Shown here piece by piece: positions 5,206-25,695 of a stretch of 26,676 bases of DNA. Both the position numbers and the translations under genes were made by a program. Positions within the stretch are counted from its first letter, which is position 1. Each line of letters starts with the position of its first letter. The stretch is from an uncultured Gammaproteobacteria bacterium (lineage in GTDB: Bacteria > Patescibacteriota > Microgenomatia > JAMCZE01), in NCBI GenBank assembly GCA_964371135.1, contig CAYJLJ010000002.1:11758-38433 (forward strand). Direction: 5' to 3'. The notes beneath the pieces were generated by a model. It had not been told where the DNA came from, did not search any database, and saw nothing but the letters and a program-made list of their open reading frames with translations.

Positions 5206-5235
5206 AGCCTCACAAGACCACCTCTTGCGAAGCTA
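5206..5235. repeat. Dispersed palindromic repeat, family A, copy 1 (intergenic)
   Basis: AGCCTCACAAGA-CCACC-TCTTGCGAAGCT. 5213-5235 is identical over 23 nt to 9931-9953. Confidence 0.85.
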
Positions 5236-9665: not shown

Positions 9666-11013
9666 CAGAAATAGTGTACCCCATTTTCACAATTTCGTCA
9701 CGCAGTTTGTCCGCCTCAGCAAACTTTTTTTCTTTTCGTAGTGTCTCCCGCTTTTGCATCAGTTCTTGTATCTCCGAAGGTATTTCTTTTTCTGCAGTTT
9801 TATCTATTTGTAAGCCCAACACTTTATCGAATTTTAATAATAAACTCCTGTCTTCAGTTTGCCAGGCGACGGCCAGGGCCTCCGGCATATTCAAGTCATT
9901 ATTTATAGCCTGTAAAAATTCCTTCTCTTGCAAGACCACCTCTTGCGAAGCTAACTGTTTTGGCTCTGCAAGGCTCTGGAATTTTCGGCGCAATTTTTCG
10001 AGGCTATTTTGGGCATTTTGTAATGCCTCCCAGGTAAAGTTTAAAGCTGTCCTGTAGTGCGCCGTCAAATAAAAATATCTTAAAGCTAAAGGGTCAAAAC
10101 CTTTATCAATTACGTCGTGAATCGTATAGGCATTTCCAAGTGACTTGCCCATCCTTCCGCCATCAACCAAAAGAAATTCACCGTGAAGCCAGTAATTGGC
10201 AAACTTTTTTCCGGTTGCGCCTTCGCTTTGCGCTATCTCATTGGTATGATGAATGGCAATATGATCAATTCCCCCGGTATGGATATCCAGAGTTGCGCCT
10301 AAATATTTTATCGCCATGGCAGAACACTCAATGTGCCAACCCGGAAAACCTTTCCCCCAGGGGCTGTCCCATTCCATTTGCCGCTTGCCAAGTCCCGAGC
10401 TTGCCGAAGGAGAAAATTTCCACAGGGCAAAGTCAACGGGATTGCGTTTTGTTTTATCCTCTATAATTTCTTCGCGTGTTGCCACTCTTTTGTCGACTAA
10501 CTTTTGGCCACCAAGCTTGCCATATTCAGGAAATTTGGAAACATCAAAAAAGACACCGGTTTCTGTTTTGTAAGCCAGACCTTTGTCTACCAGGATCTTA
10601 ATTAAATCAATCTGCTGCTGAATATGATCCGTCGCCCGAACAAAGAAAGTAGGTTGTTCAATATTTAAAAGTTTTAGGCTATTTTTGAAGTCATCAATAT
10701 AGAAGTTGGCAATGTCCCAGGCATTTTTCCCTTCCCGCTTTGCCGCTTTCTCCATCCGGTCTTCACCCAGATCGGCATCACCCAAATTGTCCCCGGTCAG
10801 ATGGCCCACGTCGGTCGCGTTCATCACTTGAGTAACATTATAACCGTTGTATTCCAGCGTTCTTCTTAAGAGGTCATAAAAAGTAAATGTCCGCCAGTTA
10901 CCGATTTGGGGATAGTAATATACGGTTGGTCCACAGGTATAAAGTCCGACTTTTTTATCCCTGATCGGCCTAAATTCCTCCAGTTTTCTAGTTAAAGTAT
11001 TGTAAAGTTTCAT
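9652..11013 (-). CDS. cysS: Cysteine--tRNA ligase
   Basis: MKLYNTLTR, YTCGPTVY, DFALWK, WDSPWG.GFPGWHIECSAM, DIHTGG.DH...HHTNE, RMGKSLGN, ADKLRD. GGAGG lies 5 nt before ATG 11013. Confidence 0.97.
   Translation of the reverse strand: MKLYNTLTRKLEEFRPIRDKKVGLYTCGPTVYYYPQIGNWRTFTFYDLLRRTLEYNGYNVTQVMNATDVGHLTGDNLGDADLGEDRMEKAAKREGKNAWDIANFYIDDFKNSLKLLNIEQPTFFVRATDHIQQQIDLIKILVDKGLAYKTETGVFFDVSKFPEYGKLGGQKLVDKRVATREEIIEDKTKRNPVDFALWKFSPSASSGLGKRQMEWDSPWGKGFPGWHIECSAMAIKYLGATLDIHTGGIDHIAIHHTNEIAQSEGATGKKFANYWLHGEFLLVDGGRMGKSLGNAYTIHDVIDKGFDPLALRYFYLTAHYRTALNFTWEALQNAQNSLEKLRRKFQSLAEPKQLASQEVVLQEKEFLQAINNDLNMPEALAVAWQTEDRSLLLKFDKVLGLQIDKTAEKEIPSEIQELMQKRETLRKEKKFAEADKLRDEIVKMGYTISDGTS
9927..9953. 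repeat. Dispersed palindromic repeat, family A, copy 2 (in frame in cysS)
   Basis: CTTGCAAGA-CCACC-TCTTGCGAAGCTA, read as LASQEVVLQ in CysS. Confidence 0.85.
10393..10410. repeat. Possible repeat-derived insert in cysS (PSASSG)
   Basis: Minus strand CCTTCGGCAAGCTCGGGA lies in the variable loop between ALWKF and RQMEW. Single copy in the window; resembles from memory a PSTSSG-encoding dispersed repeat. Confidence 0.4.
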
Positions 11014-11014
11014 T

Positions 11015-11422
11015 TTATCCTCCCACCTGTCTTCCAAACTCCCCGGTCGATTCGGAGTTTCGCAGATTTTGTTTCAAAACGTCGTCTTTGGGCAAGCCTT
11101 TTGATTTGGGAATTTCCGGGCCTGCCGCGCCGGCCAAAGCTTTAGCGGAGGCTGGTTCACTGTTCACTTTTAACCTCTGCGTTTCCAGTTCTTCCCTGAC
11201 CTTTTGCAGCTTAGCCAGCTGCAATTGGCTGGCCGCCTGCGACAGCTGGGTCAGGGATTTTTTTGTAGGAACAGGTTTTCCTGTCACGGGATCCTGTTTT
11301 TTATTATCTCTTTTGTCTTTCTTCCCCAAAACCTGTTTCTTTCCTTCCACAAAAATATCCCTGACAGTATCTTTTGCCACTTCTCCAACTTCATCAGTAA
11401 AATTTCCCAAAGGATTATGCAT
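11015..11422 (-). CDS. Hypothetical charged protein (135 aa)
   Basis: ORF sits between the S66 peptidase and cysS with 1-nt gaps on both sides, consistent with translational coupling. Confidence 0.7.
   Translation of the reverse strand: MHNPLGNFTDEVGEVAKDTVRDIFVEGKKQVLGKKDKRDNKKQDPVTGKPVPTKKSLTQLSQAASQLQLAKLQKVREELETQRLKVNSEPASAKALAGAAGPEIPKSKGLPKDDVLKQNLRNSESTGEFGRQVGG
11129..11155. repeat. Palindromic insert in the 11015-11422 gene (PASAKALAG)
   Basis: Core GCCAAAGCTTTAGC (11133-11146) is a 14-nt palindrome with one mismatch that is a G-U pair on the coding strand. Confidence 0.5.
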
Positions 11423-12404: not shown

Positions 12405-14369
12405 TTACTCCTTTGCCGGCTCCAAAGGGAGCTTCGGTTTGGTCCAGGAGGCAAAGTCGCAGCTGGGATAGTTGGAGCAGCCGTAAAAGTTTTTTTTGTT
12501 TTTTGTCCGCTTAATGATCACTTCTCCGGCGCATTTTGGGCATGGAATTCCCGTCAGCCGGGCAAAAGGCTTGGTAAACTTGCACTCCGGAAATTTGCTG
12601 CAGGCCAGAAACTTGCCGAATTTGCCGATGCGCACGACCAGGAACGCGCCGTCATTGGGGCATTTCTCCTGTGTTGTCTCCGTTTCCACCTTCACCCGGG
12701 CCGCAGTTTCTGTCACCCCGCCCAATTGCCTGGCAAACGGCTCATAAAATTCCCGGATCACCGGCACCCATTGTTTTTCCCCATTGGCAATATTGTCCAG
12801 TTCATCTTCCATCCCCGCCGTGAATTTAAAGTCCAAAACGCCCGCAAAGTTTGCCATCAGAAAATCATTTACCGCCAGTCCCAAAGCCGTCGGCAGGAGT
12901 TTTTTATCTTCTTTTTCAATATATTGCCGGTCCTGGATTGTGGAAATAATCGGGGCATAGGTACTTGGCCGGCCGATACCGTATTCTTCCAGGGTTTTAA
13001 TCAGAGACGCTTCGTTATACCTGGGCGCGGCTTGGGTAAAATGTTGTGACGGAACAAGTTCCAATAATTCTAAAATTTCACCAATTGTTAAATTTGGCAG
13101 TTCCTTATTTTCTTCATTTTCTTCTTTCTTATCTTTTATATTTTCTTTATCATATAGTGTTTGCCAGCCGTCAAACAGCACTTTCGAGCCGGTAGCCCGC
13201 AAGGTGTAGCCGGCAGCAGTAATATCAACGCCCGTCTGCTGGCTCACGGCTTCACTCATCTGGCAAGCCACAAATCTTTTCCAAATTAATTCGTACAATC
13301 TTTTTTGGTCCCGGTCCAAATTGGAATTTTGAATTTGGAATTTAGGGTCGGTCGGTCTTATGGCTTCATGAGCTTCCTGCGCTACTTTTGATTTGGTTTT
13401 ATAAATTCTCGCGTTTTCCGGTAAATACTTTCCCCCAAATTCAGATTTAATATAGTCTCTGGCACTACTAACCGCTTCGATGGCCAAGTTCGTCGAGTCC
13501 GTACGGTGGTAGGAAATATAACCGGCTTCATAAAGACTTTGGGCAACCTGCATGGTTTTTTTGGCGGACCAACCGAAGAGATTAGAGGCCGCTTGTTGTA
13601 AGGTAGAAGTCGTAAAAGGCGGATACGGGTTGCGTTTCACCTCTTTGCTCTGAACATCCGTCACCTCGAATTTTGCCGTTTGCAGCCGGGCGGTTATTTT
13701 GTCCGCCTCATCCTTAGTGTGTATTTCCTGCTTAACCAGTTTAGCTTCAAAGGGAGAGACCCGTTGAAGCTGGGCAACGATTTCCCAGTATTCGACGGGC
13801 TTAAAAGCCAGAATTTCCCGCTCTCTTTCGACGATTAAGCGCACAGCGACGCTTTGTACTCTTCCTGCAGATAACCCGCGTCTTATTTTCCTCCAAAGAA
13901 GCGGTGAAAGTTTATAGCCGACCAACCGGTCAAGAATCCGCCTCGCCTGTTGGGCATCGACCAAAGGCATATTTATTACACCGGGCTTTTGCAGCGCTTC
14001 CCTTATTGCCGACTCCGTTATCTCATGAAAAGTTATCCGCGAGAACTTGGAATTTGGATTTTTGAGTTTGGAATTTTCGCTTATCACTTTGGACAGATGA
14101 TAGGCGATGGCTTCTCCTTCACGGTCCGGATCGGTGGCCAGTATAACTTTATCCGCTTTCTGCGCCGCCATTTGCAGTTCCTTAACTTTTTCTTTCTTGT
14201 CCGGAGAAACCACATAGTCCGGAGCAAAGTTGTGCTCCACATCAATCCCCAGCCGTTTTTGGGGCAGGTCGCGGATATGACCCATCGAAGCCTCGATTTG
14301 AAAATCCTTCCCCAGAAATTTCGAGAGCGTCCGGGCTTTGGTTGGTGATTCCACAATAATCAGGTCCAT
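12405..14369 (-). CDS. topA: DNA topoisomerase I (type IA)
   Basis: LIIVESPTKA, SMGHIRDL, ATDPDREGEAIA, SAGRVQS, catalytic SYHRTDS, QEAHEAIRPT, GIGRPSTYA, two C-terminal Cys4 zinc ribbons. Confidence 0.98.
   Translation of the reverse strand: MDLIIVESPTKARTLSKFLGKDFQIEASMGHIRDLPQKRLGIDVEHNFAPDYVVSPDKKEKVKELQMAAQKADKVILATDPDREGEAIAYHLSKVISENSKLKNPNSKFSRITFHEITESAIREALQKPGVINMPLVDAQQARRILDRLVGYKLSPLLWRKIRRGLSAGRVQSVAVRLIVEREREILAFKPVEYWEIVAQLQRVSPFEAKLVKQEIHTKDEADKITARLQTAKFEVTDVQSKEVKRNPYPPFTTSTLQQAASNLFGWSAKKTMQVAQSLYEAGYISYHRTDSTNLAIEAVSSARDYIKSEFGGKYLPENARIYKTKSKVAQEAHEAIRPTDPKFQIQNSNLDRDQKRLYELIWKRFVACQMSEAVSQQTGVDITAAGYTLRATGSKVLFDGWQTLYDKENIKDKKEENEENKELPNLTIGEILELLELVPSQHFTQAAPRYNEASLIKTLEEYGIGRPSTYAPIISTIQDRQYIEKEDKKLLPTALGLAVNDFLMANFAGVLDFKFTAGMEDELDNIANGEKQWVPVIREFYEPFARQLGGVTETAARVKVETETTQEKCPNDGAFLVVRIGKFGKFLACSKFPECKFTKPFARLTGIPCPKCAGEVIIKRTKNKKNFYGCSNYPSCDFASWTKPKLPLEPAKE
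13323..13343. repeat. 7-nt tandem array in topA (3 units, KFQIQNS)
   Basis: GGAATTT-TGAATTT-GGAATTT, 21 nt, in frame. Confidence 0.75.
14042..14076. repeat. 7-nt tandem array in topA (5 degenerate units, NSKLKNPNSKF)
   Basis: AGAACTT-GGAATTT-GGATTTT-TGAGTTT-GGAATTT, same consensus as 13323-13343. Confidence 0.75.
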
Positions 14370-14385
14370 AAGATTCTTAAGTATC

Positions 14386-15501
14386 TTAACACAAGGAATA
14401 GTTCAACCCCGAAGCTCGAATTTTCCTCCTAATCTCGAGATTTGTCAAAATTGCCCCAAGTCTTGCGGCCTCAAACCGGCTTCGTTTCACCAGTTCATCA
14501 AACTCCAGGGTCTCATTAATTAAAAGGTCAATAATGGCCTGCTCCTCCGGTGTTTCGCCTTTTGGTACTTCTAACCTGCTAACCTGCTGGCCTACCCTCG
14601 CGCTAACCTGTCCATATCCCAATTCCTGCAGTATATCTTCCACTCCCGTTACCAGCTTCGCCCCTTGTTTAAGAAGATAGTTTGTCCCTTCCGCCATTGG
14701 TGAATTGATTTGTCCCGGCACGGCAAAAACTTCCCGCCCCTGGTCCAGAGCTGCCCGGGCAGTGATGAGGCTGCCCGAATCGATGGCGCCTTCTGTGACC
14801 AAAACCGCCTGTGAAAGTCCTGAAATAATCCGGTTGCGGGCCGGAAAAACACCCCGCGCCACCAGTTTCCCCGGAGCCACCTCGGAAACAACCGCCCCGC
14901 CCGTGTCAATAATATTGTGATAAAGTTCCGTGTGCTCTTTTGGATAAATGACATCAACCCCAACGCCCAGGACGGCAATAGTTGTTCCCCTGCAGTTCAG
15001 GGTTGTTCCATGAGCCACCCCGTCAACCCCGAGAGCCAGGCCTGACACGACAGTAAAACCCGCGTTAACCAGTCCGGCTGTCAATGTCCGGGTTATCTCC
15101 TTTCCGTAGTCAGTAATCTTTCTGGTTCCAACTACTCCTATTGTCCTTCCCTCTACTAATCTGCTAACCTCCTGACTTTCTAACCTGCTTTTAATAAAGA
15201 GAATATTCGGCGGATCCGGAATATTTTTCAGACGCTTCGGATAGTTCGGATTATTAATTGTGAGAAATTTAATTCCCCTTTTTTCCAAATCCTGCGCGTA
15301 TTTGTCCACTATTAATATCTTCTTCTGATTTAGCAGTTCGCAAAGCGCGTCTTTGGGCAGATGAGTCTGGCGCAATTGTTCCTCCGTCGCGTTCCAGGCA
15401 TCCCCGGCGTTTCCGAAGTAGTTTAGCAGCAATTTTAGCCTCACCGGACCGATGCCGGTTACGGTGCTAAAAGCAATGAGATATTTTTCCTCCTCACTCA
15501 T
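14386..15501 (-). CDS. dprA: DNA-processing protein DprA
   Basis: YPKRLKNIPDPP, VVGTR, VVSGLALGVDG.AH, FPARNRIISGLS, SGSLITA.AALDQGREVFAVPG, GTNYLLKQGA. C-terminal wHTH. Familiar dprA-topA order. Confidence 0.96.
   Translation of the reverse strand: MSEEEKYLIAFSTVTGIGPVRLKLLLNYFGNAGDAWNATEEQLRQTHLPKDALCELLNQKKILIVDKYAQDLEKRGIKFLTINNPNYPKRLKNIPDPPNILFIKSRLESQEVSRLVEGRTIGVVGTRKITDYGKEITRTLTAGLVNAGFTVVSGLALGVDGVAHGTTLNCRGTTIAVLGVGVDVIYPKEHTELYHNIIDTGGAVVSEVAPGKLVARGVFPARNRIISGLSQAVLVTEGAIDSGSLITARAALDQGREVFAVPGQINSPMAEGTNYLLKQGAKLVTGVEDILQELGYGQVSARVGQQVSRLEVPKGETPEEQAIIDLLINETLEFDELVKRSRFEAARLGAILTNLEIRRKIRASGLNYSLC
14571..14610. repeat. 8-nt phased array in the dprA linker
   Basis: CTAACCTG at 14571, 14579 and 14603, with two degenerate units in phase between them. 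Confidence 0.7.
15156..15187. repeat. 8-nt tandem array in dprA (SRLESQEVSRL)
   Basis: CTAATCTG-CTAACCTC-CTGACTTT-CTAACCTG, same octamer consensus as 14571-14610. Confidence 0.7.
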
Positions 15502-15507
15502 AACTAC

Positions 15508-15582
15508 TCCCTAATATACTAATCGAAAACCAAATATACTAATTCAATTCGTATATTTTGTTTAGTATTCGTATATTAGGGA
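15508..15582. repeat. 75-bp ungapped imperfect palindrome spanning the mrdA-dprA intergenic region
   Basis: 31 of 37 arm positions are complementary around a central C at 15545. Outer 12 bp perfect (TCCCTAATATAC/GTATATTAGGGA). Confidence 0.85.
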
Positions 15583-17198
15583 TTACTCCCGAACCACTGT
15601 TCTAAAATCTTTTTGGCAACAGGCGCAGCTACATCAGACCCTTCTCCGCCGCCTTCTACAAGAACTGTAACCGCTATCTCCGGTCCGCCAGCTGGCGGAT
15701 CAGCGGGGGCGAACAGGGTTAGCCATCCATGAGTCTTTTTCAGAGCCGGATCGCCATATTCCGCCGTTCCCGTTTTGCAGGCAATTTGCGGTTTGAAATC
15801 AAACAATGGCCAGGCCGTCCCCCCCGGCGAACAGGCGCCAATCATGCCCTTCTTAATCAAATCAATTGTTTCTTTCTTTATTCCTAAATCCTTGCATCCG
15901 TTTTCCTGACCTTTATCCCACTCCTTTTGTCTTTTGTCTGGTGCCAGTACATGTGGCCGGCATAACTTTCCTCCATTTGCAATAACCGCCGTCCAAAAAT
16001 TAACCTGCAAAGGCGTGGCCAGGACATCCCCCTGGCCGATGGCGGTGTGATAGGTATCGCCCAAATACCAGTCCCTGTCCAGCTTAATCAAACCCTTTGC
16101 TTCGCCGGGCAGATCAATCCCCAGCGGAGCCTCCAGCCCAAATCTTTTTGCCCAGACAATCAGATTATCAATGCCGGTTGCCTCCCCGGCTTTATAGAAA
16201 AAAATGTCATTGCTTTTTTGGATTGCCCCAACAACATCCAAAGGCCCCTCCACGCCGCCGATTGCCAGATATTTCCAGTTGGGAAATTTGTACGGGCCGA
16301 TCACCAGAATCCCGGTGTCTTCAATAATTGTCCCGGCGGTTATTGACCCTGTTTCAAGCCCGGCGGCAGCCGTAACCAATTTAAAGGTTGATCCCGGCGG
16401 AAACGTTCCGGAAACCGCGCGGTTAAAGAAAGATTGTTTCGGGTCATTTAGACTGGCCGCGATATTATTTGGGTCAAACGCGGGAACGGAAACCAAAGCC
16501 AGGATTTCACCGGTATTCGGGTTTGTGGCCACCACAACGCCATTTTGTCCATCAAGGGCTGCATACGCTGTTTTTTGAATTTGGGCGTCGATAGTTAAAG
16601 TTAAATTACTGCCCGGCACCGGAGGTACCGTGGAAATAGTCCTTAATTTTTTGCCAACGGCATCAACTTCGATTAAATCTTTGCCGTCAACTCCCCGCAG
16701 TTTATCCTCATAAAATTCTTCGACGCCCCCCTTGCCGGTTTTATAACCATCAGAGGAACTATCTTCAGAAACATAGCCTGTTAAATGGGCAAAGGCCGGG
16801 CCGTATAAATACGACCGGATGGAATCTACCTCCGCCTGTTTGCCGGCAACTTCCAACTCAATCGCCTGGTCTTTGGAAATAGTTTGATTGTTAAACCGGA
16901 AACCTGGTAAATTAGCCGTCAACGGCACGTCGTTGCGGTCATAAATAATCCCGCGGGGCGCATGGATGGGAATCTGGGCAATCCGGTTTTCCATCGCCAG
17001 CCCGTGAAAATAGGCTCCGGCGAAAATCTGCGTTTTAATCAGGGTCGAAAGCAGTCCCAGAAACGCGGCCACCGTCAAAAGTTTTACGGCAATAATCCGG
17101 CCATGGCCACCTCCATCTTCATCATGATAATGACGGCCCGCCAACCGGGATTTTTGGCGCGTGACAGAAACAAAATCACCAAGCGATAGCCCGAGCAT
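15576..17198 (-). CDS. mrdA: Penicillin-binding protein 2 (class B transpeptidase)
   Basis: APRGIIYDRN, G..GVE.FYED.LRG.DG, PGSTFK (SxxK), SNDIFFY (SxD), CKTGTAE. Downstream of mreCD. Confidence 0.93.
   Translation of the reverse strand: MLGLSLGDFVSVTRQKSRLAGRHYHDEDGGGHGRIIAVKLLTVAAFLGLLSTLIKTQIFAGAYFHGLAMENRIAQIPIHAPRGIIYDRNDVPLTANLPGFRFNNQTISKDQAIELEVAGKQAEVDSIRSYLYGPAFAHLTGYVSEDSSSDGYKTGKGGVEEFYEDKLRGVDGKDLIEVDAVGKKLRTISTVPPVPGSNLTLTIDAQIQKTAYAALDGQNGVVVATNPNTGEILALVSVPAFDPNNIAASLNDPKQSFFNRAVSGTFPPGSTFKLVTAAAGLETGSITAGTIIEDTGILVIGPYKFPNWKYLAIGGVEGPLDVVGAIQKSNDIFFYKAGEATGIDNLIVWAKRFGLEAPLGIDLPGEAKGLIKLDRDWYLGDTYHTAIGQGDVLATPLQVNFWTAVIANGGKLCRPHVLAPDKRQKEWDKGQENGCKDLGIKKETIDLIKKGMIGACSPGGTAWPLFDFKPQIACKTGTAEYGDPALKKTHGWLTLFAPADPPAGGPEIAVTVLVEGGGEGSDVAAPVAKKILEQWFGSNP
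15684..15699. repeat. Perfect 16-bp palindrome inside mrdA (family B, DPPAGG)
   Basis: TCCGCCAGCTGGCGGA. Same TCCGCC/GGCGGA stem as 24845-24859. Confidence 0.7.
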
Positions 17199-17496
17199 AG
17201 AAAAAAATAATTTGCGACCCCGCCTCGAAAGCCAAAAACGACCAGAGGTTAAAAGGGTATTTAACTTTAAACAATTGCACGGCCAAAGCCGCCAGAAGAT
17301 AGGCCCCGGCCAAAACTCCCAGCTGATTGCCCAAAATCAGGTCTCCCAAAAACCCCGTCCCAAAGGCCAGAGCATAGATTTTGGAGGCGTTAAATTTATA
17401 GCCGGCAGCGGAAATAATAATTAGTACCGGCAAATTCACCGCCGGCGTAATTGCCTGTAAAAATACGGAAATTATTGATAAAGCAACAAGTATCAT
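17176..17496 (-). CDS. mreD: Probable rod-shape protein MreD (short)
   Basis: Hydrophobic 106-aa ORF between mreC and mrdA containing GFLGDLILGNQLG. ATG 17496 lies 10 nt after the mreC stop. Assignment rests largely on synteny. Confidence 0.6.
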   Translation of the reverse strand: MILVALSIISVFLQAITPAVNLPVLIIISAAGYKFNASKIYALAFGTGFLGDLILGNQLGVLAGAYLLAALAVQLFKVKYPFNLWSFLAFEAGSQIIFFYARAIAW

Positions 17497-17506
17497 TTCA
17501 ACTGGT

Positions 17507-18277
17507 TTAGTCTGATAAGACAAAAACCGTCTCCAGTCCCGAATAATCAAGAATCGGCAGAACGGTCGCTTTTTTAAACAGGTCCGTCCCGGCGCTGATG
17601 ATTTTTCCCAGTTTTCCCACTACTAAATCGGGGGGAAAGCTGTCACCCTCTCCCGATGTCAAAATCGGGTCATTTTCGGCTATTTCTTCGGTTTGGGCGA
17701 CCCGGTCAAGCTGCATTGAGGAATTAAATTGTCCTATAACAAGACCTCTAGCCTTATTTATCTTGACGGGAATCTTCGCCTGCGGGTCCGTGGGAAGCTG
17801 GACAAAGCTGGCTTTGGGTGTTGTCCGGACAATTTTCCCGACGAGGTTATTGAGATAGATAACTGTCTGCCCTTCTTTGACGGCGTCATTGGTTCCGAGT
17901 CCGATTTCCAGGTAGCGGCCGCTTCCCAGGACGATAGCCGGCAGCAATTTTCTGTCAGCCGGGATTTTTGCCCCCAATTGCTTACGCAATTCATTATTTT
18001 CCTCTTTTAACGCCGCCGACTCGCTAATTGTTGCGGACAATTCCAGGTTTCTCTGTTCCAGATTTTTGATTCTGGCCTCGCCGGATTTCCAGAAGGTTAA
18101 AAAGGAGAAAGTTTCACCGACCCCCTGCTTGGCGGAATAAACCGCATATTGAATGGGTACGGTTATTACCTGAACCGCAGATTTTGGCGTGTCCAGCAAG
18201 CCGGTTCCATCCACCAAAAAAACAAAAACTGCCAATAAAAATAGGGCTCCAAATGTCCTCAACTCCAAGGTCTTCAT
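17507..18277 (-). CDS. mreC: Rod shape-determining protein MreC
   Basis: TM helix, coiled coil LKEENNELRKQL, beta domain with GTNDAVKEGQTVI...LVGKI, ILTSG.G..FPPDLVVG, P..DYSGLETVFVL. Confidence 0.9.
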   Translation of the reverse strand: MKTLELRTFGALFLLAVFVFLVDGTGLLDTPKSAVQVITVPIQYAVYSAKQGVGETFSFLTFWKSGEARIKNLEQRNLELSATISESAALKEENNELRKQLGAKIPADRKLLPAIVLGSGRYLEIGLGTNDAVKEGQTVIYLNNLVGKIVRTTPKASFVQLPTDPQAKIPVKINKARGLVIGQFNSSMQLDRVAQTEEIAENDPILTSGEGDSFPPDLVVGKLGKIISAGTDLFKKATVLPILDYSGLETVFVLSD

Positions 18278-18350
18278 GCAGGGAAAGTATACCTATTTTC
18301 CGTCATTCTGGCCAGAGTCCAGAATCTCCCTCGCCACCTGAAACGTAATC

Positions 18351-18379
18351 TTGACAGGAAAAAGGAAAAAAAGTACTAT
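18351..18379 (+). promoter_or_regulatory. Near-consensus sigma70 promoter for the 18386 ORF
   Basis: TTGACA (18351-18356), 17 nt, TACTAT (18374-18379), then 6 nt to the ATG. Confidence 0.75.
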
Positions 18380-18385
18380 GTGTTT

Positions 18386-18595
18386 ATGACTGAGAGAGAA
18401 GTACAAATTATAAAATGGGGTGTAGAAACAGTCCCGAAGAATAAACGGATTACCGGTTATCTCTGTGGCACTTGTCACGAACCGATTTATCTCCTCAGCG
18501 GGATCAAAGATGCAAGTGGCGTTGTAGTAGCACAAGATATTCATGCTAGCGGTACACGATGTAAACCCGGCGTAATTGAAGCGATTGTTGAATAA
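18386..18595 (+). CDS. Small hypothetical protein, possible zinc binder (69 aa)
   Basis: CGTC plus H-x5-C. Supported by its dedicated promoter. Occupies otherwise empty space upstream of mreC. Confidence 0.6.
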   Translation: MTEREVQIIKWGVETVPKNKRITGYLCGTCHEPIYLLSGIKDASGVVVAQDIHASGTRCKPGVIEAIVE

Positions 18596-18671
18596 CACCT
18601 TTTCCCCCGCCCAATTTTTAGCTCCGCAAGAGGAACTCTTGACAAACTTTTTATGTGGTATCATTTTTATT

Positions 18672-19229
18672 ATGGGAGACGATAAGAATTATAACGGCAA
18701 TAAAGACTATAAAGGTTATAAGAGCCTGGCATTTTACCAACAATCAGAAATAATCTACGATTTTACGGTTGAATTTTGCGAAAAGTATATTGACTACAAG
18801 TCACGCACTCGCGACCAAATGGTTCAGGCAGCACGTTCCGGTAAGCAAAATATAGCCGAGGGCTATTTACAAAAAAGTATCGAGGGGAAACTTAAACTTT
18901 TGGGTGTAGCACGAGGTAGTTTGGAAGAATTGTTGAATGATTATCAGGATTTTTTAAGACAAAAAGGGTTACCGATTTGGACCAAGGATGATCCTCGTTC
19001 TCAAACTGTCCGTTCCTTGGTTTATAAAAATTATAAAAGTTATAGCGATTATAAAGGTTATATTTCCGCCCCGGAACCGGCAGCAAACGCTATGGTTTGT
19101 CTAATTAACCAGACAAACCAACTTTTAGATTCCAAACTCCGTTGGTTGCAAGACGACTTTGTCAAAAACGGTGGCTTCCGGGAAAATTTGCTGAAAAAGC
19201 GCCTGGAATACCGAAAAAAATCATTTTAA
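18672..19229 (+). CDS. Four-helix-bundle protein (23S rRNA IVP/Avd-like fold) with C-terminal suffix domain
   Basis: GYKSL.FYQ.S.IIYD.T, RTRDQMVQAARSGKQNIAEG, KLL.VARGSLEELL.DY.DFLR, LINQTN.LL, F..NGGFRE. TGG-TATCAT lies 7 nt before ATG 18672. Confidence 0.9.
   Translation: MGDDKNYNGNKDYKGYKSLAFYQQSEIIYDFTVEFCEKYIDYKSRTRDQMVQAARSGKQNIAEGYLQKSIEGKLKLLGVARGSLEELLNDYQDFLRQKGLPIWTKDDPRSQTVRSLVYKNYKSYSDYKGYISAPEPAANAMVCLINQTNQLLDSKLRWLQDDFVKNGGFRENLLKKRLEYRKKSF
18678..18722 (+). repeat. 9-nt degenerate tandem array at the 5' end of the four-helix-bundle gene
   Basis: GACGATAAG-AATTATAAC-GGCAATAAA-GACTATAAA-GGTTATAAG. Confidence 0.75.
19020..19064 (+). repeat. 9-nt degenerate tandem array inside the four-helix-bundle gene
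   Basis: GTTTATAAA-AATTATAAA-AGTTATAGC-GATTATAAA-GGTTATATT, read as VYKNYKSYSDYKGYI. Confidence 0.8.
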
Positions 19230-20276
19230 TCCCCCCGTTACCCGGACTCTTTCCAGGAGTTTGTCGTCGGTTAAAACCCGTCCGCAGCCCCGGACAACGG
19301 CCGTCATGGCATCATCAGCCACCCAAACCGGAACTTTCGTCGCTTCAGAAATGGCAATGTCAATGTTTCGCAATTGCGACCCGCCGCCGGCCAGGGCAAT
19401 CCCGCGGTTGACAATGTCTGAGGCCAGTTCCGGCGGGGTTTCTTCCAAAAGACTGCCGATGCCTGAAACAATCTGATTAATGATCGGGCTGAGAGCCTCC
19501 CGGATTTCTGAAGAAGAGATTTTGAGAGACTTGGGCAACCCCGATTCCAAATCCCGGCCCCGCACGACTGCATATTTTTCTTCCTCATTTTTGGTTGGAG
19601 CCGCCGAGCCAATCGAAATTTTCAGAATTTCGGCCGTCGGCTGGCCCACCAGAACAGCATATTTGAGTCTTAGAAAACCGCTGATCGCTTCATCCATTTC
19701 GTCCCCGGCTACCCGGATAGATTTGTTCACCACAATTCCCCCCAGAGCCGTGACCGCCATTTCCGTGGTTCCGCCCCCAATGTCCACGATTATTGAGCCG
19801 CTGGATTCATCGATGGGAAGATTAATTCCCAGAGCCGCCGCCATCGGCTCTTCGATTAAATAGGCTTTGCGCGCTCCCGCAGCCAGGGCCGCTTCCTGCA
19901 CCGCCCGCCGTTCCACTTCCGTTACTCCCGATGGTATCCCGATTATTACTTTGGGCTTGGGAATCTTGGGAATTACGCCCGGGCTTTGATGCACCAGTTT
20001 GATATAGTGAGCCAGCATCGCCGTCGTGGCGTCAAAATCTGAAATCACCCCATCAGCCAGCGGCCGGACAACCTCAATTGTTGCCGGCGCCCGCCCGAGC
20101 ATTTTTTTGGCTTCTGAGCCGATGGCAATGACTTTTTTGGTTTTTTTGTGAATGGCCACCACCGACGGCTCGCGGATAACGATACCCTTGCCCTTGACCA
20201 TTACTAACGTGTTCGACGTTCCCAAATCAATACCCATGTCAAACGACACCAGCCCAAAAAGTGAATCCAGAAACAT
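19221..20276 (-). CDS. mreB: Rod shape-determining protein MreB
   Basis: MGIDLGTSNT, EPSVVA, RPL.DGVISDF, PSGVTEVERRAV, IEEPMAAA.G, VDIGGGTT, L.GGG..L. Confidence 0.98.
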   Translation of the reverse strand: MFLDSLFGLVSFDMGIDLGTSNTLVMVKGKGIVIREPSVVAIHKKTKKVIAIGSEAKKMLGRAPATIEVVRPLADGVISDFDATTAMLAHYIKLVHQSPGVIPKIPKPKVIIGIPSGVTEVERRAVQEAALAAGARKAYLIEEPMAAALGINLPIDESSGSIIVDIGGGTTEMAVTALGGIVVNKSIRVAGDEMDEAISGFLRLKYAVLVGQPTAEILKISIGSAAPTKNEEEKYAVVRGRDLESGLPKSLKISSSEIREALSPIINQIVSGIGSLLEETPPELASDIVNRGIALAGGGSQLRNIDIAISEATKVPVWVADDAMTAVVRGCGRVLTDDKLLERVRVTGGLK

Positions 20277-20385
20277 AACTAAATCGTATCATTTTAAACG
20301 GTAAAATTACAGGCAGGCGTTTGAGCCACTGTGAGGTCTTCTGATCAGTTTGCTTTCTCCCAGCACTTCTGATATTATAGGATAC

Positions 20386-20868
20386 ATGGCTGAGTACGAC
20401 CTAGAAACATCCGAGGGCTACCGTCACTACATTGAACAGGGATGGTTACTAAACGACGTGGGGGGGGCAAAACACAGTCAATGGTACATGTTTTTAAACT
20501 CTCCCGATGGCTGTGACCCCAGAAACTTCCCAGATTGGCTGAGGCAATACAAAAGTGGAAAGGCCGGGTTCGTCACCAGGCAGGAATTTACTGCGCATGT
20601 TGAATCGGAGGATCTAAGACTTACCGCCTTAGAACAAGACAGAAAAGCAGTGTGGAATACACTAGATTATGTACAGCTGGATTTACGGGATCAAAGAGAC
20701 ACAACAGACGACCTTCAGGCCCAATCAAACTTACTTTACGCGGCAATAAGCTGGTTGGCCCACCTTGTATCGCCGCAAGAAAAAACAGTTCCCGGAAATT
20801 ACCGTGTCGATAATTCACCAGGACTTCCTGCTGGAGGAAGCTACGATCTGGAAGATGACGGCTCGTAA
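20386..20868 (+). CDS. Hypothetical protein with coiled-coil segment (160 aa)
   Basis: ATG 20386 preceded by TGA-TATTAT at 7 nt. Heptad-like run LRLTALEQDRKAVWNTLDYVQLDLRDQRDTTDDLQAQSNLL. No family recognised. Confidence 0.6.
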   Translation: MAEYDLETSEGYRHYIEQGWLLNDVGGAKHSQWYMFLNSPDGCDPRNFPDWLRQYKSGKAGFVTRQEFTAHVESEDLRLTALEQDRKAVWNTLDYVQLDLRDQRDTTDDLQAQSNLLYAAISWLAHLVSPQEKTVPGNYRVDNSPGLPAGGSYDLEDDGS

Positions 20869-20883
20869 GATTATAATGTCTTC

Positions 20884-22140
20884 GTGGACCTGATTAAAAT
20901 TTGTGACCGGGTGATTAGCTGGGGCTTTTATGTACTATTTTTTTTAGTTCCCCTTGTTTTTTCCTCCCAAACTTCGGAGCTGTTTGAATATAACAAAATG
21001 ATGCTGACGTATGGGTTAACAATAATTATTGTTAGCGCCTGGGTAATAAAAATGCTGGTTGCGAAAAGATTTATCTACCGGCGCTCTTTTTTGGAAATAC
21101 CATTAATTTTATATTTAGGCGCGCATATTTTATCAACGATCTTTAGTATCGATCCGCATATTAGTATTTGGGGGTATTATTCCCGCTTTCATGAGGGCTT
21201 ATTAGCTTCTGTTTCGTATATTATTTTATATTTTGCCGCCGTTTCCAATTTAAACCGGGAGCATGTTAAGCGAATTTTATATGTTTCTTTTGCCTCTGCG
21301 GCAGTGGTTTCTTTTTGGGGTATCCTGGAGCACTTCGGTCACTCGCCGTCATGTTTAATTATTACCGGAAATTTTGGTGTTGACTGCTGGATTCAGGATG
21401 TTAAAAACCGGGTGTTTGCAACGCTGGGCCAACCAAACTGGATGGCAGCGTATTTGAATGTGATTATCCTCGCGATCTTAGGTTTTGCTCTTTCGGTTAA
21501 AAAAAAGCTCTACCTTTTTTTAATCGTAGGATTATTTGCCGCGGCACTTTTGTTCACCAGATCGCGTTCCGGTTTTGCCGGACTCGCTGCCGGGCTTGGA
21601 GTGTTTACATTACTAATAGTCCCCATTAGCAACAAATTGAAACTACTGACTTGCGCCGTCGCTTTAATAATTGGCAGCGTTGTAGGGATAAAGTGGTACC
21701 AGAACTTGCCCGCTCCCGGGCCGGGCGTGACCGATTCTGAAGCCATCAGAAAACCCGTCTGGGAAGGGGCCGTCAGGGTTTGGGAAAGATACCCGGTATT
21801 CGGATCGGGTGTAGAGACTTTTGCCTATTCATTCTACAAAGACCGGCCGGCCTCAAAAAATCTTGATTCTGAATGGGACTTTCTATACAACAAGGCCCAC
21901 AATGAATACCTCAATCTGCTCGCGACCACGGGGACGATAGGTTTCTTAAGTTACTTAGGCATCTTAGGGGTTTTTTCAATCTGGATAATTCGTAGACGCC
22001 GCGAATTGCTTGTCAGCGCTCTTTTCGCCGCCTGGGTCACGATATTAGTGACTAATTTCTTTGGCTTTTCAGTGGTTATTATTGGGTTATATTTATTTCT
22101 TATTCCGGCATGGGCAAAAATCTTAGCATCGCAGGAGTAA
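20884..22140 (+). CDS. O-antigen ligase-like (Wzy_C) polytopic membrane protein
   Basis: Many TM helices. RVFATLGQPNWMAAY, FTRSRSG, R.PVW.GA, P.FGSG.ETF, KAHNEYL. Confidence 0.88.
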   Translation: MDLIKICDRVISWGFYVLFFLVPLVFSSQTSELFEYNKMMLTYGLTIIIVSAWVIKMLVAKRFIYRRSFLEIPLILYLGAHILSTIFSIDPHISIWGYYSRFHEGLLASVSYIILYFAAVSNLNREHVKRILYVSFASAAVVSFWGILEHFGHSPSCLIITGNFGVDCWIQDVKNRVFATLGQPNWMAAYLNVIILAILGFALSVKKKLYLFLIVGLFAAALLFTRSRSGFAGLAAGLGVFTLLIVPISNKLKLLTCAVALIIGSVVGIKWYQNLPAPGPGVTDSEAIRKPVWEGAVRVWERYPVFGSGVETFAYSFYKDRPASKNLDSEWDFLYNKAHNEYLNLLATTGTIGFLSYLGILGVFSIWIIRRRRELLVSALFAAWVTILVTNFFGFSVVIIGLYLFLIPAWAKILASQE

Positions 22141-22778
22141 TTTTAGTTGCTATTTTGATGGAAACCGGCCTCTGGAATATGTGGCAGGCAGATAAAGCCT
22201 ACGCCATGGGTAAAAACCTGGACGGCGCGCGGCAGTATGTAAATGCTTATACCTACCTTACCCAGGCAGTAGAAGCTAACCCCGGCGAGCCAACCTACCG
22301 TGACGAACTCTCATATAACCAGGCGGTTTTGGCCAGCGCCCTCTTTACTCAAATTAACAACGCCACCGCTTCGGCCATCGCCTCGCTTTCGGCCGGGGAA
22401 AAGCTCACCCTGAAGATTCCGCAGCTTGACGCGTCAGTTAACGATTTAATTGGCCGCGCTGTCAGCAATTCTGACCAGGTTGTGGCCGCGTCTCCCGATT
22501 CTCTGCCGTTTTGGAAAAACAGGACAAAAATATTTTACCAGCTGGCCGCTATTGACCCTAAATATTATTCCCAAGCCCTCGAAGCTTTAAAAACCGCCAC
22601 CAACCTGGCCCCCACCGACGCCAAAATCTGGTATAACTATGGATTATTACTGGGTAGATTGGGGCAAAAACAAGAAGCTATTCAAATTTTAGAGAAGACA
22701 CTTCAAATGAAGCCTGACTACACCGATGCCAAGACGACATTATCAGAATTCGAAAAAGAACTTAATGCCAAAAAATAA
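22110..22778 (+). CDS. TPR-repeat protein with N-terminal TM helix (possibly the split C-terminus of the preceding gene)
   Basis: TPR-like units AYTYLTQAVEANPGEP, ALEALKTATNLAPTDAKIWYNYGLLL, AIQILEKTLQMKPDY. 31-nt overlap with the ligase gene. Confidence 0.85.
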   Translation: MGKNLSIAGVILVAILMETGLWNMWQADKAYAMGKNLDGARQYVNAYTYLTQAVEANPGEPTYRDELSYNQAVLASALFTQINNATASAIASLSAGEKLTLKIPQLDASVNDLIGRAVSNSDQVVAASPDSLPFWKNRTKIFYQLAAIDPKYYSQALEALKTATNLAPTDAKIWYNYGLLLGRLGQKQEAIQILEKTLQMKPDYTDAKTTLSEFEKELNAKK

Positions 22779-23718
22779 TGATACAGTTAAGTCACCCGCC
22801 ACCCTCGCAAGAGGTGGTCTTGCGAAGCTGCGAGAGGTGGTCTTGCAAACCAAGTGGCTGAAAGTTTTTCGCGCCCGGGAAGTTATTCCCGGCATCAGCA
22901 CGATTTTTATTGCCGCCCTGGACACCCGGCGGATGATTGCCCCTTCCCAACTGCTTTTAATGATCGCCGGGTTTTTAAGCATTTATTTCAGCGCTTTTTT
23001 AATCAACGAACTGGTTGATTCCTATGACACCGATAAATATAATCCCGGGAGAAATAAAGGCATAACCAAACACGGCGTATCGAGGCGCTTCACTCTCGTA
23101 TCTTTTCTGGCTGCAAGCATTATAGGAGTGTCCGTTCTCGCCTATTTAGGCCTGACATGGACAGGACTTCTCGCGTTTGCAATACTCTTTCTCTATTCCG
23201 CCCCGATCATCCGGCTTAAAGGCTGGCCATTTATTGAATTAATAGCTGTCACCATCGGCTGCGCCCTTTTGCCCTATATTGCCTATTATCAACTGGCCGG
23301 CTTACCTTTCACCTGGCATGAATGGCTGATTATTGCTTTTTTCTCCCTGGGCTTTCCGGCCATCCAACTGGTTAACGAGGGGGCGGACATTGACGCGGAC
23401 AGGCAAGCCGGGATAACAACTACGGCAGTAGTTTTAGGCGAGAGAAATAACCTGCTCTTAATTGAAATTTTATCTTTGAGTTCGGCCATTGTTGGCCTGG
23501 TGACAATGTTTCTGACCGGGCACTGGTGGTATCTATACATAGTCACGATGATTTTCTTTTTGTTTACCGCGGCCCGGTTTGGGCTGACAATCTATCACAA
23601 CCGCGCCCGGCTCCATGAACTTTTGCGCACCGGGGAAAAATTCGGGGTGTTGGCATCTGACGCGGGAACTGTAATAATTTTAGTGATCTATGTATGCGTA
23701 AGTCTCTGGCCTTTCTGA
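22765..23718 (+). CDS. UbiA-family membrane prenyltransferase
   Basis: Asp-rich motif 1 NELVDSYDTD..N..R, YSAP..RLK, motif 2 NEGADIDADRQAG.TT, multiple TM helices. Confidence 0.88.
   Translation: MPKNNDTVKSPATLARGGLAKLREVVLQTKWLKVFRAREVIPGISTIFIAALDTRRMIAPSQLLLMIAGFLSIYFSAFLINELVDSYDTDKYNPGRNKGITKHGVSRRFTLVSFLAASIIGVSVLAYLGLTWTGLLAFAILFLYSAPIIRLKGWPFIELIAVTIGCALLPYIAYYQLAGLPFTWHEWLIIAFFSLGFPAIQLVNEGADIDADRQAGITTTAVVLGERNNLLLIEILSLSSAIVGLVTMFLTGHWWYLYIVTMIFFLFTAARFGLTIYHNRARLHELLRTGEKFGVLASDAGTVIILVIYVCVSLWPF
22804..22849. repeat. Family A palindromic repeat, copies 3 and 4 in tandem (5' end of the UbiA gene)
   Basis: CTCGCAAGA-GGTGG-TCTTGCGAAGCT then GCGAGA-GGTGG-TCTTGC, read as LARGGLAKLREVVLQ. 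Confidence 0.85.
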
Positions 23719-24287
23719 TTTCAAGGATCCTTGGTCCCCTGCCCCTGCTTTGCCTTCTCTGGTTGGCGACTGCCTTTAAATCCGGCATCGGATTTTGGAA
23801 AGCTTTGTGGGTTTACCCCTTAATCTTTCTGGTGGGTATAGCTATCCCCACGGCAATATCCCTATTAATTATGCGTGCTAAGAAAATTGATTTTGAGTGG
23901 ACAAACTTAAAAGACCGGTATCTTTTAATCCCTATTTATATTCCGTTCTGGATAGTTGATCTCTTCCTGGTTTGGAAATTAACTAATCAGACAGTATTCC
24001 ACCTTTCCTTACTCATGACCGCGGGAATTATTTCCGGAATAATTTCCTATACGGTCTTTCGGTTTAAAATCAGCGCCCATATGATGATTGCCTCCGGAGT
24101 TTTTTGGGGTGTCAATTTTATGACACATAATAATTACCTGTGGCTTTTTGTCTTTCTGTTACCATTATACTGGGCAAGACTAGTACTCAAACAACATACA
24201 AAAGCGGAATTGATTGCGGGATTAATTGTTTCCAATGGCATAATGGCCATAGCAATTTTCCTTTTTGGCTGGCCGAAAGTGCCGTAA
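23694..24287 (+). CDS. PAP2-superfamily-like membrane protein
   Basis: Polytopic. KISAH and WARLVLKQHT..ELIAG resemble the C2 (SxH) and C3 (SRxxxxxH) motifs. Confidence 0.7.
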   Translation: MRKSLAFLISRILGPLPLLCLLWLATAFKSGIGFWKALWVYPLIFLVGIAIPTAISLLIMRAKKIDFEWTNLKDRYLLIPIYIPFWIVDLFLVWKLTNQTVFHLSLLMTAGIISGIISYTVFRFKISAHMMIASGVFWGVNFMTHNNYLWLFVFLLPLYWARLVLKQHTKAELIAGLIVSNGIMAIAIFLFGWPKVP

Positions 24288-24304
24288 TTTTATATAATCC
24301 GCTC

Positions 24305-24886
24305 ATGTATCCGATCATCCAGGCACCAGATATGATTTTGCGCAACGCGGCCCAGGCAGTTGACTTGCCCGCGGACAAACTTCAAAAAATTATTGAGGAA
24401 ATGCGCCGCACCCTGATTATCCAGAAAGATCCCGAGGGCGTAGGCCTGGCCGCCAATCAGGTAGGGCTTCCTTACCGGTTGTTTTTAGCCCGCTTTGACA
24501 CCAGAAAAAACTCCCCAGTTCATGTTTTCATTAATCCGGAAATTTTGGAGCATAGCGAAGAACTTGTTCATGATGACCATAAAGGCCCGTTGGAAGGCTG
24601 TTTATCTTTGCCAAAATATTATGGCGTAGTTAAACGCTACCAATGGGTAGATCTTAAATATTTTGAACTCACTAGTCACCAGAACCTAGAACCTAGAACC
24701 TCTCGTTTTGAGGATTTTCCGGCTACTGTCATCCAGCACGAAATGGACCATTTAAACGGCAAGATCTTTGTGGAAAGGATCCTGGAACAACAGGGAAAAC
24801 TGTATAAAGTGCTATCGAAAAAAGGAAAGTCGGCCAAAGGCCGATCCGCCTCTGGCGGAGAAGACTGGGAGGAAATAGAATTATGA
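24305..24886 (+). CDS. def: Peptide deformylase
   Basis: GVGLAANQVG, EGCLS, QHEMDHL.G. TATAAT (24293-24298) lies 6 nt before ATG 24305. Confidence 0.96.
   Translation: MYPIIQAPDMILRNAAQAVDLPADKLQKIIEEMRRTLIIQKDPEGVGLAANQVGLPYRLFLARFDTRKNSPVHVFINPEILEHSEELVHDDHKGPLEGCLSLPKYYGVVKRYQWVDLKYFELTSHQNLEPRTSRFEDFPATVIQHEMDHLNGKIFVERILEQQGKLYKVLSKKGKSAKGRSASGGEDWEEIEL
24681..24701 (+). repeat. Perfect (AGAACCT)x3 in def
   Basis: 21 nt, in frame, read within QNLEPRT. Confidence 0.85.
24830..24859. repeat. Double mini-hairpin (family B) in the def 3' region
   Basis: TCGGCC-AAA-GGCCGA followed directly by TCCGCC-TCT-GGCGGA, read as SAKGRSASGG. Confidence 0.8.
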
Positions 24887-25695
24887 AAGTAGTATTTTTT
24901 GGCACATCGGATTATTGTTTACCCGTTTTAGATTCTCTAAAGACAAACTTTGACTTAGTAGAAGTAATTACCCGGGAAAATAAACCAGTTGGGAGAAAAC
25001 AGGTTTTGACTCCGTCAGCAACCAAAGTTTGGGCGCAAAAGAATAATATTTCAATAAGCACCTTAAAAAACTTAGGCGGCTTGAGTCACTTAAGTTGGGA
25101 TCTTGGTATTGTGGCCGATTTTGGAGAAATGATCCCGGAAGAATTTTTTTCTCTCCCCCGCCTCGGAACATTTAATATCCACTTTTCAAAACTCCCTGAT
25201 CTGCGCGGGGCGTCTCCGGTTCAAACCGCTCTGCTGCGCGGTGATACAACCGCCTGGATAACCATTTTTAAAATTGAAAAAACTTTGGATACCGGGCCAA
25301 TTTTGTGGCAGAAAGAGTATCCCATTTTACCGGATGATACTGCGGGAACTCTCTACGCCCGGTTGTTTGAAGAGGCAGCCAAATGCTTACCAGACTGTAT
25401 TAAGAATTATGCATTAAGTATTATGCAAAACAAAAACATATTGGTCGCTCAGGATCACTCAAAAGCCACATACTGTCAGAAACTAACAAAGCAGGATGGC
25501 TTTGTTAAATGGACTAGCTTACTAGAACCTAGAACCTATGACCTCTTCAGAGCTATGACTCCCTGGCCCGGAATTTGGACCATTAAAAATGGCAAGCGGA
25601 TGAAGATTCTGAAGTGTCATCTGGAAAATAATAAGTTGGTGCTTGATGAAATCCAGTTTGAGGGGAAGAAACCGCAGAAATATGTTCAGAGATGA
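24883..25695 (+). CDS. fmt: Methionyl-tRNA formyltransferase (compact)
   Basis: MKVVFFGTSDY, KPVGRKQVLTPS, NIHFSKLP.LRGASPVQ, LDTGPI, PWPG.W. ATGA overlap with def. Confidence 0.93.
   Translation: MKVVFFGTSDYCLPVLDSLKTNFDLVEVITRENKPVGRKQVLTPSATKVWAQKNNISISTLKNLGGLSHLSWDLGIVADFGEMIPEEFFSLPRLGTFNIHFSKLPDLRGASPVQTALLRGDTTAWITIFKIEKTLDTGPILWQKEYPILPDDTAGTLYARLFEEAAKCLPDCIKNYALSIMQNKNILVAQDHSKATYCQKLTKQDGFVKWTSLLEPRTYDLFRAMTPWPGIWTIKNGKRMKILKCHLENNKLVLDEIQFEGKKPQKYVQR
25069..25095 (+). repeat. 9-nt degenerate array in fmt
   Basis: AACTTAGGC-GGCTTGAGT-CACTTAAGT (NLG GLS HLS). Confidence 0.55.
25404..25424 (+). repeat. 7-nt degenerate array in fmt
   Basis: GAATTAT-GCATTAA-GTATTAT. Confidence 0.5.
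25517..25544 (+). repeat. AGAACCT-type 7-nt array in fmt
   Basis: GCTTACT-AGAACCT-AGAACCT-ATGACCT. Same heptamer as in def; both encode LEPRT. Confidence 0.75.

Follow-up and report, generated by a model that had tools for sequence, protein, structure and literature searches.

How do tandem runs of a seven-nucleotide unit come to lie inside essential genes and to be read through as protein? This question is raised by a 26,676-nt stretch of DNA (hereafter the window; positions 11758–38433 of contig C2) from G000, the genome analyzed here, which belongs to an ultrasmall uncultured bacterium of the Candidate Phyla Radiation (CPR), of the Microgenomates type. G000 is a draft of 738 kb in 122 contigs, with 45% GC and 84% completeness; the genomes of its relatives range from 0.5 to 1.8 Mb, and the closest named relatives of its TopA belong to Microgenomates-group Patescibacteria (e.g., Amesbacteria, Woesebacteria, and Daviesbacteria). 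The original prediction, made from the sequence of the window, described patches of 7-, 8-, and 9-nt repeats between topA and fmt, and saw in them a candidate for an undescribed system that deposits short repeat tracts. The gene names given there across this span were kept after annotation. According to our analysis, the period-7 patches probably represent genome-wide families of heptanucleotide arrays (three to five units, 21–38 nt) and, as such, a form of the known bacterial heptanucleotide repeats that coding sequence tolerates.

The excess of period 7 is seen in every count that we made across G000. Exact tandem runs with at least 10 matched bases numbered 26 at period 7, with 1.0 expected under an order-3 Markov model, and degenerate arrays numbered 20–22 vs. 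0 expected, while all other periods except 14 yielded 0–6. Within the 683 open reading frames (ORFs), 27 period-7 arrays were found, compared with 0.9 (maximum 3) in 20 codon shuffles, a control that the original prediction had itself proposed. The periodicity is a property of the DNA that could not be created by selection on proteins, as had been supposed. Twelve contigs were compositional outliers and probably represent contamination; on the clean contigs that were left after their removal, 32 arrays of 21–38 nt remained, 25 of them in ORFs, which make up 86% of the DNA. The arrays, with a density of about one per 20 kb, thus exist at the DNA level, in coding and non-coding sequence alike.

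These figures leave chance, compositional bias, or an assembly artefact hardly credible as the source of the period-7 arrays. The excess over the codon-shuffled and Markov controls is 30-fold and survives the removal of the outlier contigs, and the arrays turn up again in independent genomes and in independent sequencing runs. Such an origin would agree with the weakness of the mrdA array and of the dprA 8-mer described below, when each is taken alone, and with the probable contamination represented by contigs C46, C74, and C85, in which heptamers of other kinds abound. The latter contigs have a GC content of 50–58% and carry CAGT-type heptamers together with toxin-antitoxin-like genes (MazF, HEPN, and nucleotidyltransferase-like); they were probably binned in from a Beggiatoaceae- or cyanobacterium-like genome (cf. 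PMC4679880). Neither the window nor contigs C46 and C85 had a match in Rfam. Chance is contradicted for period 7, and it stands for periods 8 and 9.

Between topA and fmt, array detection with Tandem Repeats Finder and a purpose-made periodicity scan revealed six period-7 arrays: two in topA, one in mrdA, one in def, and two in fmt. The period-7 patches reported for these four genes were therefore borne out. For comparison, we used G001, a relative of the same genus taken whole (two contigs, 96% complete), together with G012 from another genus, G014 from another family of the same class, and further relatives. Both topA arrays (gene at 12405–14369, minus strand) are of the AAATTCC type in the coding sense. 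The first (13318–13346, minus strand; TTGGAAT-type as seen on the opposite strand, about 3.3 copies, peptide PKFQIQNSN) lies in a variable loop after the EAHEAIRPT motif. The length of this loop is within one residue of that in G001, and in G012 it carries an AGGTTCT-type array instead (QVLGSR). The second (14042–14069, minus strand; degenerate, four to five units, peptide NSKLKNPNSKF) occupies a length-variable loop that is 3 residues longer than in the G001 ortholog and that holds an AAATTCG-type array in G002 (NSKFEIRNSK). In mrdA, which encodes PBP2 (15576–17198, minus strand), the array at 15923–15945 (minus strand) consists of 2.3 copies of CTTTTGT, GACAAAA in the coding sense, and encodes PDKRQKE; the corresponding loop of G001 is 5 residues shorter and bears a different array, of the AAATTCC type (QIPNSKSQ).

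The arrays of def (24140–24886, plus strand) and fmt (24883–25695, plus strand) belong to another family, in which a CTAG core is followed by three variable nucleotides. The def array (24672–24704, plus strand) reads CTAGTCA, CCAGAAC, CTAGAAC, CTAGAAC and encodes TSHQNLEPRTS; it is 2–4 residues longer than in G001 and equal in length to that in G010. In fmt, the array at 25521–25546 (plus strand; CTAGAAC, CTAGAAC, CTATGAC, peptide LLEPRTYD) is situated at the linker joining the two Fmt domains; this segment is equally long in G012, G010, and G008 and 4 residues longer in G001, and four relatives have inserts of up to about 60 residues at this site. The two arrays, both of them mosaics of the CTAG family, are 840 nt apart and have in common a 26-nt stretch with 88% identity. 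The claim that an AGAACCT-type repeat occurs in both genes was thus correct, with CTAGAAC units at each site. The second array of fmt (25399–25427, plus strand; peptide IKNYALSIMQ) consists of 2.1 copies of a 14-nt unit with a weaker period of 7 and is 6 residues longer than the corresponding segment of the G001 ortholog; its units look like those of the GAATTAT-type arrays on contigs C5, C13, and C81, a likeness that was judged by eye and not scored. Most of the sites in the window have about the same length in orthologs, and ortholog alignments do not support the view of the patches as simple insertions. A further degenerate heptamer array, of the GGTTCAC type, lies outside this span, at 11154–11176.

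Periods 8 and 9 are not part of the phenomenon. The sole period-8 array of the window is found in dprA (14386–15501, minus strand), at 14568–14611 on the minus strand, in the linker ahead of the winged-helix domain; it comprises 2.2 copies of CTAACCTG and an in-phase third copy, encodes QVSARVGQQVSRLE, and falls outside the heptamer class. As a class, 8-nt units are at the chance level, with one exact run vs. 1.0 expected under the Markov model and four vs. 1.3 under codon shuffling. The proposed second dprA array proved to be a 21-nt look-alike of this tract at 15156–15176 (minus strand; SQEVSRL), for which a 13-nt probe had four matches, with 0.44 expected. Its counterpart in the G001 ortholog is EQVSRI, without an indel, which indicates ordinary conserved sequence; the segment SRLESQEVSRL, which had been taken for an insert in DprA, is likewise conserved in the ortholog alignment. 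No 9-mer array was detected in fmt by either repeat detection method. Period 9 is in excess in ORFs (21 vs. 4.8 after codon shuffling), but it is codon-periodic, and amino-acid repeats can account for this excess.

The unit families point to the genome-wide character of the arrays. The main family of G000 is (CTAG + 3 nt)n, although the tetranucleotide CTAG is rare in this genome: 536 occurrences were counted, as compared with 919 expected from second-order statistics and 2669 from base composition. Two successive CTAG are spaced by 7 nt in 27 cases and by 14 nt in 19 cases, with about one case for other spacings, and many of the CTAG copies that are present fall within heptamer arrays. The CTAG arrays, at about 17 loci, are mosaics whose 3-nt tails come in only a few versions (TCA, AAC, CCA, CCC, and a handful more). 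An identical 21-nt composite of such units is shared by the def array and an unrelated ORF of 897 amino acids on contig C3; the recurrence of units between genes, as noted earlier, thus extends to genes that have no relation to one another. G000 also harbors several unit families that are distinct in origin from the CTAG units or from each other by their sequence. Among the 59 arrays of G001, the CTAG family is nearly absent and AAATT + 2 nt dominates, with AATT at a spacing of 7 nt in 167 cases vs. about 55 expected. Each genome thus has its own dominant family, built of a conserved core and a variable tail, and this family switches even between two species of one genus.

Inside genes, the arrays bear a clear imprint of the reading frame. 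A 7-nt unit shifts the frame with each copy, so that each trinucleotide of the unit serves as a codon once per three units (21 nt), and the arrays translate to peptides with a period of seven residues, e.g., LVTSHQS, QNLEPRT, and KFQIPNS. In the coding CTAG arrays on the sense strand, the unit whose YAG falls in frame has CAG in nine cases out of nine (including the def array, where this is the unit CCAGAAC), whereas the out-of-frame units have TAG in 26 of 27; the non-coding CTAG arrays on C8, C29, and C75 keep CTAG throughout. The orientation inside ORFs is sense for ten arrays and antisense for two, a bias that fits the presence of two stop trinucleotides in TGACTAG, the reverse complement of CTAGTCA. 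This pattern indicates that the repeat was imposed on the gene and then filtered: in-frame stops are removed by selection through the minimal change of TAG to CAG, and genes contain frame-compatible, stop-free versions only, as originally proposed.

The same observations make it very improbable that selection for the repeated peptides, for instance as a useful seven-residue surface motif, created the arrays in place of a process at the DNA level. The three peptides named above do recur in many proteins, but the same units are found in non-coding DNA and in antisense, which contradicts such an origin, and the reading of a 7-nt unit in three frames yields a recurrent peptide as a by-product. Moreover, the peptides are not conserved in orthologs, and the loss of the signal upon codon shuffling also speaks against it.

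The position of the arrays in proteins was assessed by aligning 648 pairs of reciprocal-best orthologs between G000 and G001 (mean identity 68%). Local identity was 0.36 at 52 aligned arrays vs. 0.68 at random sites of the same genes, and an indel lay within 3 residues of the array in 83% of cases vs. 20% at random sites. Genic arrays are thus confined to variable, indel-prone sites. The reverse statement, that most loop indels are heptamer arrays, was rejected, as only a few of about 700 indels of at least 2 residues show a strong period of 7. The placement of the patches in loops or linkers, as first described, holds in so far as the sites are variable and indel-prone, but it does not hold for Fmt in the sense of disordered loops. 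In an AlphaFold2 model of Fmt (12 orthologs, mean pLDDT 92.5), the array at 25399–25427 forms the C-terminal end of helix 154–181, and that at 25521–25546 covers the interdomain linker and the start of helix 217–225, both with pLDDT of about 90; as modeled, these arrays are variable surface segments.

Five to six sites are occupied by arrays in G000 as well as in G001, vs. about 1.1 expected if arrays were placed at random among variable segments, and these shared sites have either different units or diverged units in phase. In one shared loop, the arrays of the two species keep the same phase, and an identical pair of transitions separates them in each unit (AAACTCA vs. AAATTCG), a signature of concerted evolution in an array inherited from the common ancestor. 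In other shared loops the units look unrelated, and the majority of arrays in one species have no conserved counterpart in the other.

Period 7 is the outlier in each of the relatives sampled, with 31 arrays in 175 kb of G001, 16 in 160 kb of G012, and 25 in 200 kb of G014; in all, the excess was seen in five sampled genomes of the Microgenomates class. Across the Microgenomates group, TopA loci contained 18 arrays, and none occurred in TopA loci from outside the group, including the non-CPR loci. We found no literature tying heptamer repeats to CPR or Microgenomates, and no replication-strand bias was evident for the arrays of G001. The topA, dprA, and def arrays are spanned without gaps by Logan contigs from four metagenome runs, which are identical to the window or diverge from it by 1–5%, and the arrays are unchanged in independent assemblies and in these runs.

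Among the long simple repeats of many bacteria, heptamers outnumber all other unit lengths (PMC4692102, PMC4679880); they are the commonest class of long bacterial microsatellites and have no accepted mechanism. The arrays are therefore not an undescribed system in kind; they belong with a known, if unexplained, class of repeats. In the summary of Mrazek et al. (2007) that PMC4679880 provides, slippage over a 7-nt polymerase footprint is the only cause proposed. Prokaryotic heptanucleotide long simple sequence repeats (LSSR), as far as they are described in that summary and in PMC4692102, likewise consist of tandem 7-nt units far above expectation, are dispersed in families, and have an unexplained origin; in G000, both the excess over composition (27 vs. 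0.9 and 26 vs. 1) and the genome-wide dispersal with shared unit families were found. In contrast to LSSR, the arrays described here are very short (three to five units), are mostly genic (25 of 32), lie in essential genes, and are read in frame, and their host has an ultrasmall CPR genome, whereas the LSSR hosts in that summary have large ones.

Other heptamer families show similar likenesses and differences. The GGGAATC repeats of Xanthomonas and the GGGGAYT repeats of Nostoc (Rehm et al., 2015; PMC4692102) also represent one dominant dispersed family per genome, with two to many units, often near gene ends, and the GGAATTT and GGGATTT units seen here resemble them. However, the units here are not G-rich and are represented in ORFs almost in proportion; neither a G-tract capable of forming a G-quadruplex nor under-representation in coding sequence was found (units such as CTAGTCA, AGAACCT, and AAATTCC; 25 of 32 arrays in ORFs). 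The TAACTGA repeats of marine Beggiatoaceae, cyanobacteria, and Bacteroidetes (MacGregor, 2015; PMC4679880) and the heptamers among the cyanobacterial short tandemly repeated repetitive (STRR) sequences likewise have two to six direct copies, stop codons that limit their orientation in or near genes, and an unexplained mechanism of transfer. They are situated mainly just upstream of start codons or in intergenic regions (PMC4679880), whereas the present arrays occupy variable positions within genes; G000 has CAGT-type arrays too, but these are restricted to contigs C46 and C74, which are probably foreign. Phase-variable contingency loci have a frame-shifting repeat close to the 5' end of surface or variable genes and are polymorphic in populations; the arrays in topA, mrdA, def, and fmt are instead internal, keep the frame, and did not change among the sampled strains.

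If the arrays are a coding-tolerant form of this repeat class, slipped-strand mispairing with a register of 7 nt may generate them and keep their units alike, and new sites could be reached by templated copying or gene conversion from other arrays. At tolerant sites they would persist for a long time, their units changing in concert, and they would probably do nothing for the proteins. Several observations weigh against this interpretation. Pure slippage predicts identical neighbors and random unit sequences, and the arrays show neither; about 60% of adjacent CTAG units, in a tally made by eye, differ in the tail and retain the core, and a few of the same units recur across loci and genera. 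The combination of varying tails, a kept core, and units recurring across loci implies that something beyond local slippage acts. The register of 7 itself receives no explanation from the processes proposed. No variation in unit number was seen at the arrays among strains up to about 5% divergent, although this is a weak test, as contigs of 2–5x coverage hide minor variants. Finally, heptamer arrays make up about 1–2% of all indels between G000 and G001, and the process behind them is accordingly a minor contributor to indel evolution.

The location in essential genes, the switch of the dominant family, the units of core and tail, and the evidence of copying between loci are more than simple local slippage would give and would allow for a dedicated process. 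It is possible, and we put it forward tentatively, that a DNA-level process of the Microgenomates class builds core-anchored arrays, copies them between loci, and rewrites tolerant segments of essential proteins, perhaps in connection with PF05635 cassettes that have such repeats as arms. A related and rather unlikely explanation is that a dedicated mobile or enzymatic system deposits the arrays, either as solo arms of PF05635-type cassettes or through a writer of core-anchored heptamers. It draws on the variable tails and conserved cores, on families specific to species within one genus, and on the identical 21-nt composite in unrelated genes, as well as on the PF05635 genes themselves. These genes, which encode a four-helix bundle (23S rRNA intervening sequence protein or Avd-like), are numerous for such tiny genomes, with two in G000 and four to five in each of five relatives. 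In G001, one of them (C2:77858-78085) is enclosed by inverted arrays of the dominant unit of that genome, with the arms within 77776–78247, and eight other inverted array pairs exist there, with no PF05635 match between the arms. Several intergenic hairpins of G001 have inverted GAAATTT-type arms, i.e., on C2 at 3849–3920, 19990–20090, 31496–31553, 55693–55800, 96577–96630, and 140494–140586, and on C1 at 440826–440887.

The window contains a PF05635 gene of its own (18664–19229, plus strand) between mreB (19221–20276, minus strand) and mreC (17507–18277, minus strand). It lies with a small ORF in a 0.94-kb island (18293–19229) that is absent from G001, where mreB and mreC are adjacent; judging from this comparison, the island would be either an insertion or a loss. 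However, no heptamer arms were found at this gene or at the other PF05635 gene of G000, on C7, and the arrays of the window are single, unpaired, and inside other genes, although arrays of the same kind form the arms at the G001 locus. None of the arrays of the window has an inverted partner, nor do they fold (z from -0.01 to +0.7), and a hairpin structure for them was rejected. Target-site duplications were not noticed in the array flanks that were read, where no systematic search was made, and the stability of the arrays in strains up to about 5% divergent is a further point against a dedicated system. As for a writer enzyme, none was found: reverse transcriptase (PF00078) was looked for and is absent from both G000 and G001, at their completeness of 84 and 96%, while transposases and recombinases were not searched for. 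An origin from a diversity-generating retroelement or another reverse transcriptase was rejected on this ground. Two 39-nt in-frame direct repeats (18682–18720 and 19024–19062), 79% alike, flank the PF05635 domain within the ORF of the window; they have an internal period of 9 and encode Tyr/Lys-rich peptides.

The conserved CTAG or AAATT core could also be read as a functional DNA motif, placed every 7 bp for a nucleoid, methylation, restriction, or uptake protein. Selection or uptake-biased recombination would then maintain or spread the motif, which would enter genes only at tolerant places, in the manner of DNA uptake sequences. The strong avoidance of CTAG elsewhere, together with its 27 repeats at exactly 7 nt, is consistent with this, as are the variable tails, the species-specific dominant motifs, reminiscent of dialects of uptake sequences, and the intergenic copies in inverted pairs. 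The genome has dprA, and competence genes are common in this group. The DNA uptake sequences of Neisseria and Pasteurellaceae are single motifs of 9–12 nt that occur about once per kb. When compared by behavior only, they resemble the arrays in being over-represented and species-specific, in forming inverted intergenic pairs, and in being tolerated in poorly conserved parts of proteins. However, in place of one motif at that density, G000 has tandem heptamers of several unrelated families, and about one array per 20 kb is a much lower density than that of known uptake sequences. The arrays of G000 and G001 are for the most part not conserved, and no candidate binding protein was identified. 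A functional motif therefore seems quite improbable as the cause.

In these very small genomes, where heptamers are not pushed out of genes, selection leaves a readable record, and this record (the change of TAG to CAG, the tolerant sites, the units changing in concert, and the species-specific families) can be used to test how such repeats arise. Essential enzymes gain low-complexity residues through the arrays, which may be of use as strain markers. As a few arrays lie at contig ends, they may also be responsible for part of the contig breaks in these metagenome-assembled genomes. A writer or copier enzyme, if real, would represent a new kind of genome-editing activity.

Some other features were noted in the course of the analysis. 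In the TopA ortholog of G009 (G009:C1:55601-57478), there is one in-frame TGA, for which a sequencing error, a pseudogene, or recoding is possible. Between mrdA and dprA, a palindrome at 15505–15585 has 40-nt arms that are 83% complementary and separated by 1 nt, and a variant in one run skips 15501–15592. A small dispersed hairpin with the core GCAAGAGGTGGTCTTGC occurs in both orientations at 5213–5235, 9931–9953, 22807–22826, and 22830–22849, two of the copies being in tandem, with a weaker copy at 18626–18645.

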